A DNA stretch of 64,000 bases, from the NCBI RefSeq assembly GCF_016903815.1, contig NZ_CP069973.1, one strand, 5' to 3'. Below, in pieces: positions 53,975 to 54,891 of the stretch (its first letter is position 1; each line of letters begins with the position of its first letter). Under the pieces are notes generated by a model. It did not search any database and had not been told where the DNA came from. It worked only from the letters and a program-made list of their open reading frames with translations. Source of the stretch: Escherichia coli (GTDB lineage: Bacteria > Pseudomonadota > Gammaproteobacteria > Enterobacterales > Enterobacteriaceae). The translations under genes and the position numbers were made by a program.

Positions 53975-53985
53975 TGGATTTGCCC

Positions 53986-54891
53986 CTATATTTCCAGACA
54001 TCTGTTATCACTTAACCCATTACAAGCCCGCTGCCGCAGATATTCCCGTGGCGAGCGATAACCCAGCGCACTATGCGGATGCCATTCGTTATAATGCTCG
54101 AACGCCTCTGCAAGGTTCTTTGCTGCCGTTAACCCGTCTGGTTTGGGCATGATACTGATGTAGTCACGCTTTATCGTTTTCACGAAGCTCTCTGCTATTC
54201 CGTTACTCTCCGGACTCCGCACCGCCGTGTTCTTCGGTTCAAGTCCCAACATCCGGGCGAACTGGCGTGTTTCATTAGCCCGGTAGCATGAACCATTATC
54301 CGTCAGCCACTCCACTGGAGACGACGGAAGATCGTTGCCGAAGCGGCGTTCCACCGCTCCCAGCATGACGTCCTGTACTGTTTCACTGTTGAAGCCGCCG
54401 GTAGTGACCGCCCAGTGCAGTGCCTCACGATCACAGCAGTCCAGCGCGAACGTGACACGCAGTCTCTCTCCGTTATCACAGCAGAACTCGAACCCGTCAG
54501 AGCACCATCGCTGATTGCTTTCTTTCACGGCCACTCTGCCTGTATGTGCCCGTTTCGATGGCGGTACAGCAGGTTTTCGCTCAAGCAACAGCGCATTCTG
54601 GCGCATGATCCGGTAAACACGTTTGGCATTGATCGCAGGCATACCATCAAGTTCTGCCTGTCTGCGAAGCAGCGCCCATACCCGACGATAACCATACGTG
54701 GGCAGCTCTCCGATAACATGGTGTATACGGAGAAGCACATCCGTATCATCAGTGTGACGACTGCGGCGGCCATCCATCCAGTCATCGGTTCGTCTGAGAA
54801 TGACGTGCAACTGCGCACGCGACACCCGGAGACAACGGCTGACTAAGCTTACTCCCCATCCCCGGGCAATAAGGGCGCGTGCGCTATCCAC
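53986..54891 (-). CDS. insD: IS2 transposase OrfB (InsD, DDE integrase domain)
   Basis: 301-aa ORF starting [23 protein letters not shown] (GTG start) with DDE transposase domain. Confidence 0.9.

Follow-up and report, generated by a model that had tools for sequence, protein, structure and literature searches.

In a P22-like prophage of Escherichia coli, the right end of an IS2 element reads in frame into the remainder of an HNH endonuclease gene, and the resulting hybrid open reading frame is probably an incidental product of simple IS2 transposition into an HNH homing gene of this prophage. The feature is real and was accurately described, yet it is an ordinary by-product, and the hybrid ORF touches no open question. 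In the course of events that we favor, IS2 would have transposed into the free-standing HNH gene located between gp10 and gp26 of the late operon. An ATG carried by IS2 itself, 27 nt from its right tip and open to that tip, would have landed in the same orientation and frame as the gene, giving an ORF of 137 amino acids. The gene is probably best viewed as disrupted. If the hybrid is expressed, its mRNA would come from Q-antiterminated late transcription running through IS2 after induction, not from IS2, and its translation would start with the help of a weak SD-like GUGAU or from the nearby ATG of Met39. Such a product would retain the D-H...N...N core and the AP2-type domain, minus the conserved N-terminal helix and β-hairpin. 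The features on which this account is built are collected in Table 1; throughout, the window refers to the whole stretch of 64,000 nucleotides from contig NZ_CP069973.1 that was analyzed.

Table 1. Positions in the window of the IS2 insertion, the hybrid reading frame and their neighbors
Feature	Position	Strand	Remarks
gp26 tail-needle gene	52887..53588	-	ATG overlaps the stop of HNH/hybrid (TAATG 53590..53586)
Hybrid ORF, 137 aa	53588..54001	-	9 IS2 residues (MSGNIGANP) followed by HNH residues 37-164
Alternative in-frame ATG	53966..53968	-	native Met39 = hybrid Met12; just outside IS2
Target-site duplication GTTCC, IRR side	53970..53974		codes for HNH residue G37 and a portion of T38
Complete IS2	53975..55305	-	1331 bp; both ends read directly
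IS2-derived leader of the hybrid ORF	53975..54001	-	9 codons ending exactly at the IS2 tip, 53975
IRR, 41 bp	53975..54015	-	1 exact match in the window against 0 expected by chance
Outward -35 hexamer TGGAAA	53991..53996	-	placed by the 17-bp spacer rule
Weak SD-like GUGAU	54007..54011	-	5 nt upstream of the hybrid ATG
A6G programmed -1 frameshift window, orfA/orfB overlap (AAAAAAG)	54891..54897	-	sequence read; PGAP 'programmed frameshift'
IRL, 42 bp	55264..55305	-	ends read directly
N-terminal remnant ORF	55290..55418	-	HNH 1-38, then RLAP* from IRL; unannotated by PGAP
Target-site duplication GTTCC, IRL side	55306..55310		read directly
gp10 (packaged-DNA stabilization / head-closure)	55421..56839	-	upstream neighbor; Pfam Phage_stabilise, E = 7.7e-299; PGAP

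The identity of the inserted element is well defined. IS2 generates 5-bp target duplications, and GTTCC is found at both ends of the element. Its size, repeat lengths and ends agree with the published description of IS2, in which imperfect repeats of 41 bp (IRR) and 42 bp (IRL) end in 5'-TGG and 5'-TAG, respectively (PMC3299598). On the plus strand the IRR side reads 5'-TGGATTTGCC... at 53975 (also given as TGGATTTGCCCC... from 53975), and the IRL side reads ...GGCCAGTCTA ending at 55305 (also given as ...GGGGGCCAGTCTA up to 55305). The transposase genes orfA and orfB are minus-strand genes, co-directional with the late operon of the phage. Pfam places HTH_Tnp_1 in orfA and rve, rve_3 and HTH_21 in orfB, and the two genes are joined by the A6G window for -1 frameshifting that has been described for IS2 (PMC3299598). 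PGAP calls the product 'IS3-like element IS2 family transposase' (WP_088895425.1), and the same accession appears in IS2 copies of other genomes. The element is widespread, with its IRR-proximal 300 bp found at a coverage of at least 80% in 4273 of 5426 E. coli genomes. The 41 bp of IRR accommodate three signals: the TAG that ends orfB (53988..53986), the ATG of the hybrid (54001..53999) and, as placed by the spacer rule, the -35 of the junction promoter.

The sequence-only reading of this region had proposed that the ORF at 53588..54001 begins at an ATG inside the IS2 end and continues in frame into the HNH part, and direct reading bears out both statements, with the coordinates exact. The minus-strand ATG lies 27 nt inside IRR and has in-frame stops ahead of it (TGA TAA CAG ATG). 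Beyond the IS2 tip, the frame that began with MSGNIGANP continues through HNH codons 37-164 as GT-MCTGYLRI..., closing at TAA 53590..53588. PGAP annotates the hybrid as an ordinary, non-pseudo CDS, WP_204638456.1, 'HNH endonuclease'. The alternative start at Met39 is the one called in draft assemblies for a 126-aa form, which is present on 24-28 contigs. The IS2 leader ...IGANPGT aligns by coincidence with the native ...VGDEAGT (53975-53992, hybrid residues 5-11), and thereby restores the near-invariant G33 in the G..AG motif of the family.

To describe the gene that was hit, IS2 was excised in silico together with one copy of GTTCC. This yields an ORF of 495 nt encoding 164 aa, with the insertion point at codon 38. 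Over 1065 nt, the restored allele with its flanks has 100% identity to phage vB_EcoP-683R2 (ON470594.1) as well as to five complete E. coli genomes, and the exact 164-aa protein is found on 743 public contigs. Residues 53-97 match Pfam HNH_3 with 58.7 bits (cut-off 24.8), a score that is the same for the intact and the hybrid protein, and residues 107-153 match AP2 below threshold. The family alignment shows no variation at D73, H74, N86 and N98 and hardly any at N95, which corresponds to the catalytic D-H...N...N core. An AlphaFold2 model of the 164-aa protein, built from 51 homologues, reaches a pLDDT of 92; the predicted fold resembles that of a solved HNH homing endonuclease, with the N-terminal ~100 residues forming an I-HmuI-like domain in the model.

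Of 5426 complete E. coli genomes, 13 have the gene uninterrupted between gp10 and gp26. For the majority of the ~890 other genomes with a match, that match is mainly to the flanking gp10 and gp26. Matches listed at 55% coverage in two pieces are the empty site, where gp10 and gp26 abut directly. Among phages, one record carries the gene as against about 20 P22-like phages with the empty site, for example CUS-3, HK620 and IME10. The GC content of the HNH gene is 39%, compared to 49-51% for its neighbors. Sporadic presence at one precise site and atypical composition are features of free-standing homing endonuclease genes, and on sequence grounds the interrupted gene bears the hallmarks of a free-standing, dispensable HNH homing-endonuclease gene. 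A literature search found no description of this HNH gene or of this IS2 insertion.

In the arrangement gp10-TAA-TA-ATG-HNH...TAATG-gp26, the tight stop/start order of the empty site is preserved. Near-duplicate gp10 3' ends bound the HNH gene (window positions 53588-53602 and 55419-55435, minus strand; compared with L013, which is CUS-3, and L002): AGGCTGGAGTAATA precedes the HNH ATG, AGGATTGAGTAATG comprises the last HNH codons (RIE*) and the gp26 start, and the empty site of CUS-3 reads AGGATCGAGTAATGG. It seems from these sequences that the homing gene was inserted with a duplication of ~14 nt that preserves the gp26 stop/start overlap.

The host element is a P22-like (Lederbergvirus-type) prophage at argW, adjoining tRNA-Arg and intS. 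At 100%, the region matches strain 5283 as well as the chromosome of E. coli strain 2779 (NZ_CP103521.1), which was isolated from blood in Houston. Its minus strand carries, in order, Q, holin, lysozyme, lysis protein, terminase, portal, coat, gp4, gp10, IS2, 'HNH endonuclease', the gp26 homologue, ejection proteins and tailspike. In HK620, IME10 and further phages, homologues of gp26 carry the annotation tail needle protein. The early region holds N, repressor, cII, replication and nin genes. From torI to intS the prophage spans ~39 kb and looks complete apart from the IS2 insertion. The idea that IS2 makes the prophage too long for headful packaging was dropped, as ~39 kb is not above the ~43 kb of a P22 headful. 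At the variable 'moron' position of P22-like phages, between integrase and tailspike (44270-45658), a gene annotated as a DUF1796 putative cysteine peptidase and one annotated as a GDSL-type esterase/lipase sit on opposite strands and look like cargo. Outside the window (NZ_CP103521.1 1499000-1508200; L014 3100-12200), the torI end of the prophage borders on a second, small integrative element, which encodes a tyrosine recombinase, a protein for rolling-circle replication, and regulators of the MerR and HTH types.

Lambdoid late promoters lie at the 3' end of Q, and a strong promoter-like TTGACA-18-CATAAT (11 of 12 matches) overlaps this end in the prophage. Q-modified RNA polymerase ignores intrinsic as well as Rho-dependent terminators. 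Directly after the coat gene, within the late operon, a G+C-rich hairpin followed by a T-run (AAGGGGCTTCCGCCCCTT TTATGTTTTA; 57511-57528, minus strand) looks like an intrinsic terminator that antiterminated late transcription must pass. Q antitermination switches on the late operons of lambdoid phages (PMC2629481). Since the essential genes from gp26 through tailspike lie downstream of the IS2-HNH junction, RNA crossing this junction is expected on induction, and the late-operon context makes it very likely that such a transcript is formed.

The sequence-only reading had further suggested that a truncated HNH protein could be made if IS2 supplied outward transcription; carried further, this would mean constitutive synthesis in the lysogen. 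IS2 is documented to activate its neighbors in this way. Its only known outward promoter element is the -35 in IRR, which together with a -10 in IRL makes up the minicircle-junction promoter Pjunc; Pjunc needs a 17-bp spacer that is created by the 1-bp junction spacer (PMC3299598), and the same -35 has built fusion promoters for ampC, acrEF and neoR (PMC9330008). At the present junction, however, the hexamer as placed by this spacer rule (53996..53991) begins downstream of the hybrid ATG, at a distance of 2 nt, the sequence at 17-nt spacing that would have to serve as -10 is GAACCA (1 of 6 matches to TATAAT), and any transcript initiated there would begin near 53961, past both ATG 54001 and Met39. 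A scan for sigma-70-like promoters on the minus strand between 53300 and 55700 returned none. An IS2 fusion promoter at the junction was rejected on account of the position of the -35, the poor -10 candidate and the empty scan. There remains the element's own promoter PIRL, whose transcription of orfA and orfB heads to the junction; no intrinsic terminator was found between orfB and the junction when the minus strand was searched from 53300 to 55700. PIRL is, however, a weak extended -10 promoter that is repressed by OrfA (PMC3299598). Its transcript would have to cross ~1.2 kb of orfB before reaching the junction, a region that goes mostly untranslated, as ribosomes enter it only by frameshifting, and IS2 is a classical source of Rho-dependent polarity with Rho-dependent terminators, whose orientation is unstated in that source (PMC3737525). 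Constitutive, IS2-driven production of the truncated protein is thus highly improbable. With respect to the earlier proposal, the part that stands is the ORF with its retained HNH_3 and AP2-like regions, whereas IS2 as the origin of the transcript does not hold up: IS2-supplied transcription is the least likely route of expression and read-through from the late operon the likely one.

Given a transcript, translation becomes the next determinant. The duplex of GUGAU with the 3' end of 16S rRNA is calculated at -7.1 kcal/mol, which is around the 10th percentile of 432 background ATGs and suggestive only; the value falls within the range of real gene starts of the region (-5.9 to -11.3). Termination-reinitiation from the orfB stop, 13 nt downstream of the hybrid ATG, is also conceivable. 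The supply of ribosomes for this would be limited, since orfB is read only after the frameshift and few ribosomes reach its stop. Detectable translation from the ATG at 54001 is rather doubtful.

What the product could do depends on what was lost and what was kept. The hybrid keeps the whole HNH_3 match, the AP2-like domain and the invariant D73, H74, N86 and N98, and AlphaFold2 run on the retained 126 residues returns the same fold with a pLDDT of ~91. These points, together with the SD-like element and the late transcription expected across the junction, speak for a second alternative, in which the hybrid or the 126-aa form starting at Met39 is translated from the late transcript and continues to function as a nuclease or as a sequence-specific DNA binder. 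Against it, the protein lacks residues 1-36, which in the predicted model form a helix (4-10), a β-hairpin (11-14 and 19-22) and the subsequent loop within the I-HmuI-like N-terminal ~100 residues. According to the family alignment, the lost segment includes the invariant Y13 and G18 and the near-invariant L7, P15, T17, F20, G33 and A36, so that the hybrid is without the N-terminal L..L.YDPETG.FT...G..AG of the complete architecture. AlphaFold2 with a family alignment does not report stability and is insensitive to instability induced by truncation. In addition, other alleles are decaying as well, as would be the case for a homing gene that is not under selection. As the missing N-terminal part is a conserved one in this family, it is doubtful that the hybrid is functional. 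Hence full homing activity appears unlikely and an active endonuclease improbable, as does the broader alternative of a product that still works as a nuclease or specific binder. Residual DNA binding by the hybrid is possible, and the SD-like element, the AlphaFold2 fold and the catalytic residues may leave room for a partly active or DNA-binding product as a counterpoint to our preferred reading of the hybrid as an incidental product.

It could also be that translation, and not the product, is what matters. The hybrid frame would then couple to gp26 via TAATG, and the in-frame insertion would have kept a possibly inducible prophage viable. The overlap of the HNH stop with the gp26 start (TAATG 53590..53586) fits this proposal, as do the HNH-less phages, in which the gp10 stop and the gp26 start overlap likewise (GAGTAATGG), and the otherwise complete appearance of the prophage. 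Yet gp26 has a good SD of its own (AGAGGA; -9.2 kcal/mol), so coupling is not obviously needed, and one insertion event cannot show selection for the frame; the proposal is extremely improbable. Very unlikely, too, is a combined scenario in which use of the IS2 ATG or Met39 after induction gives a truncated HNH-AP2 protein that binds or nicks DNA and at the same time feeds ribosomes to the gp26 TAATG. If it were true, the right end of IS2 would be a portable translation start, able to rescue and not simply kill the genes that it hits.

The reading of the hybrid as an incidental product is in line with what other IS2 copies look like. In six copies picked by hand from other genomes, the same ATG, the open 9-codon leader MSGNIGANP and an identical tip were found in all six. 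The ORF reading out of these copies stops after 15-53 aa, and none is in frame with a gene. The ATG arises from Arg-Cys codons (AGA TGT) located four codons before the orfB stop, within the transposase-binding repeat. Judged from these copies, it is a fixed feature of IS2 that is present in every copy. Because ATG and open leader are constant, a same-orientation insertion of IS2 into a gene has a 1-in-3 chance of an in-frame join. The in-frame join observed here is such a 1-in-3 accident and not more than chance.

The insertion is found beyond a single genome. In addition to two complete genomes, the exact hybrid protein is encoded on 7-12 public contigs. The sequence GAACCATG..., located 1 nt within the target duplication of the IS2-HNH junction, forms the beginning of about 19 draft contigs, as is expected because assemblers break at repeats, and 'partial' proteins starting at T38 or G37 come from 28 more contigs. 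The insertion is therefore the mark of a lineage and not of one isolate, being stably inherited and at least not strongly counter-selected. Other alleles of the HNH gene are damaged in different ways. Two loci (L015 and L017, 1387-1881) show a 1-nt deletion in the T5 run of codons 19-20 (GGGGTTTTT to GGGGTTTT), which splits the gene into ORFs of 43 and 126 aa, a homopolymer change that could be a sequencing error. At a further locus (L016, 1501-1881), the first ~59 nt of the HNH gene and the upstream neighbor are swapped for unrelated DNA. The damaged alleles are consistent with a homing gene decaying without selection. IS2 would be one of at least three independent kinds of damage to this gene, and the locus can be seen as a snapshot of the usual life cycle of homing endonuclease genes, from invasion through decay.

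The case matters mostly for genome annotation. Among the IS2 copies sampled, PGAP usually tags the split genes as pseudogene fragments ('incomplete; partial in the middle of a contig'). Two other sampled copies also yield PGAP CDSs that borrow IS2 sequence. One is an 'alpha/beta hydrolase-fold protein' (L008, 3-1205, minus), a truncated enterochelin esterase that takes an ATC start from the last 5 nt of the IS2 tip; the other is a DUF4049 protein (L010, 1-1287, plus) whose final 28 codons and stop lie within IS2. The IS2-split HNH gene stands in RefSeq as an ordinary 'HNH endonuclease' (WP_204638456.1), with the IS2 end supplying the in-frame ATG. Such hybrids can slightly distort counts of intact homing endonucleases and tallies of prophage pseudogenes.

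Comparison with known systems helps to place the locus. Annotation pipelines report genes split by an IS as fragments or shortened CDSs, whereas the HNH hybrid passes as a normal CDS with its own WP_ accession, because PGAP still finds matches to the HNH profiles. With respect to the protein, I-HmuI (PDB 1U3E) is intron-encoded and has a helix-turn-helix C-terminal domain, while the HNH protein described here is free-standing and carries an AP2-like domain; as compared to enzymes of the I-HmuI type, the hybrid is moreover split by IS2 and devoid of residues 1-36. The closest parallel for the insertion is the IS2-ampC fusion promoter (Jaurin & Normark 1983), which, as far as its citation in PMC9330008 goes, involves the same element with IRR facing the gene and the outward -35 present. 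Unlike at ampC, the flank here offers no usable -10 at 17 bp. In place of promoter creation, the effect at the HNH gene would be a translational read-out from an ATG internal to the IS and upstream of that same -35.
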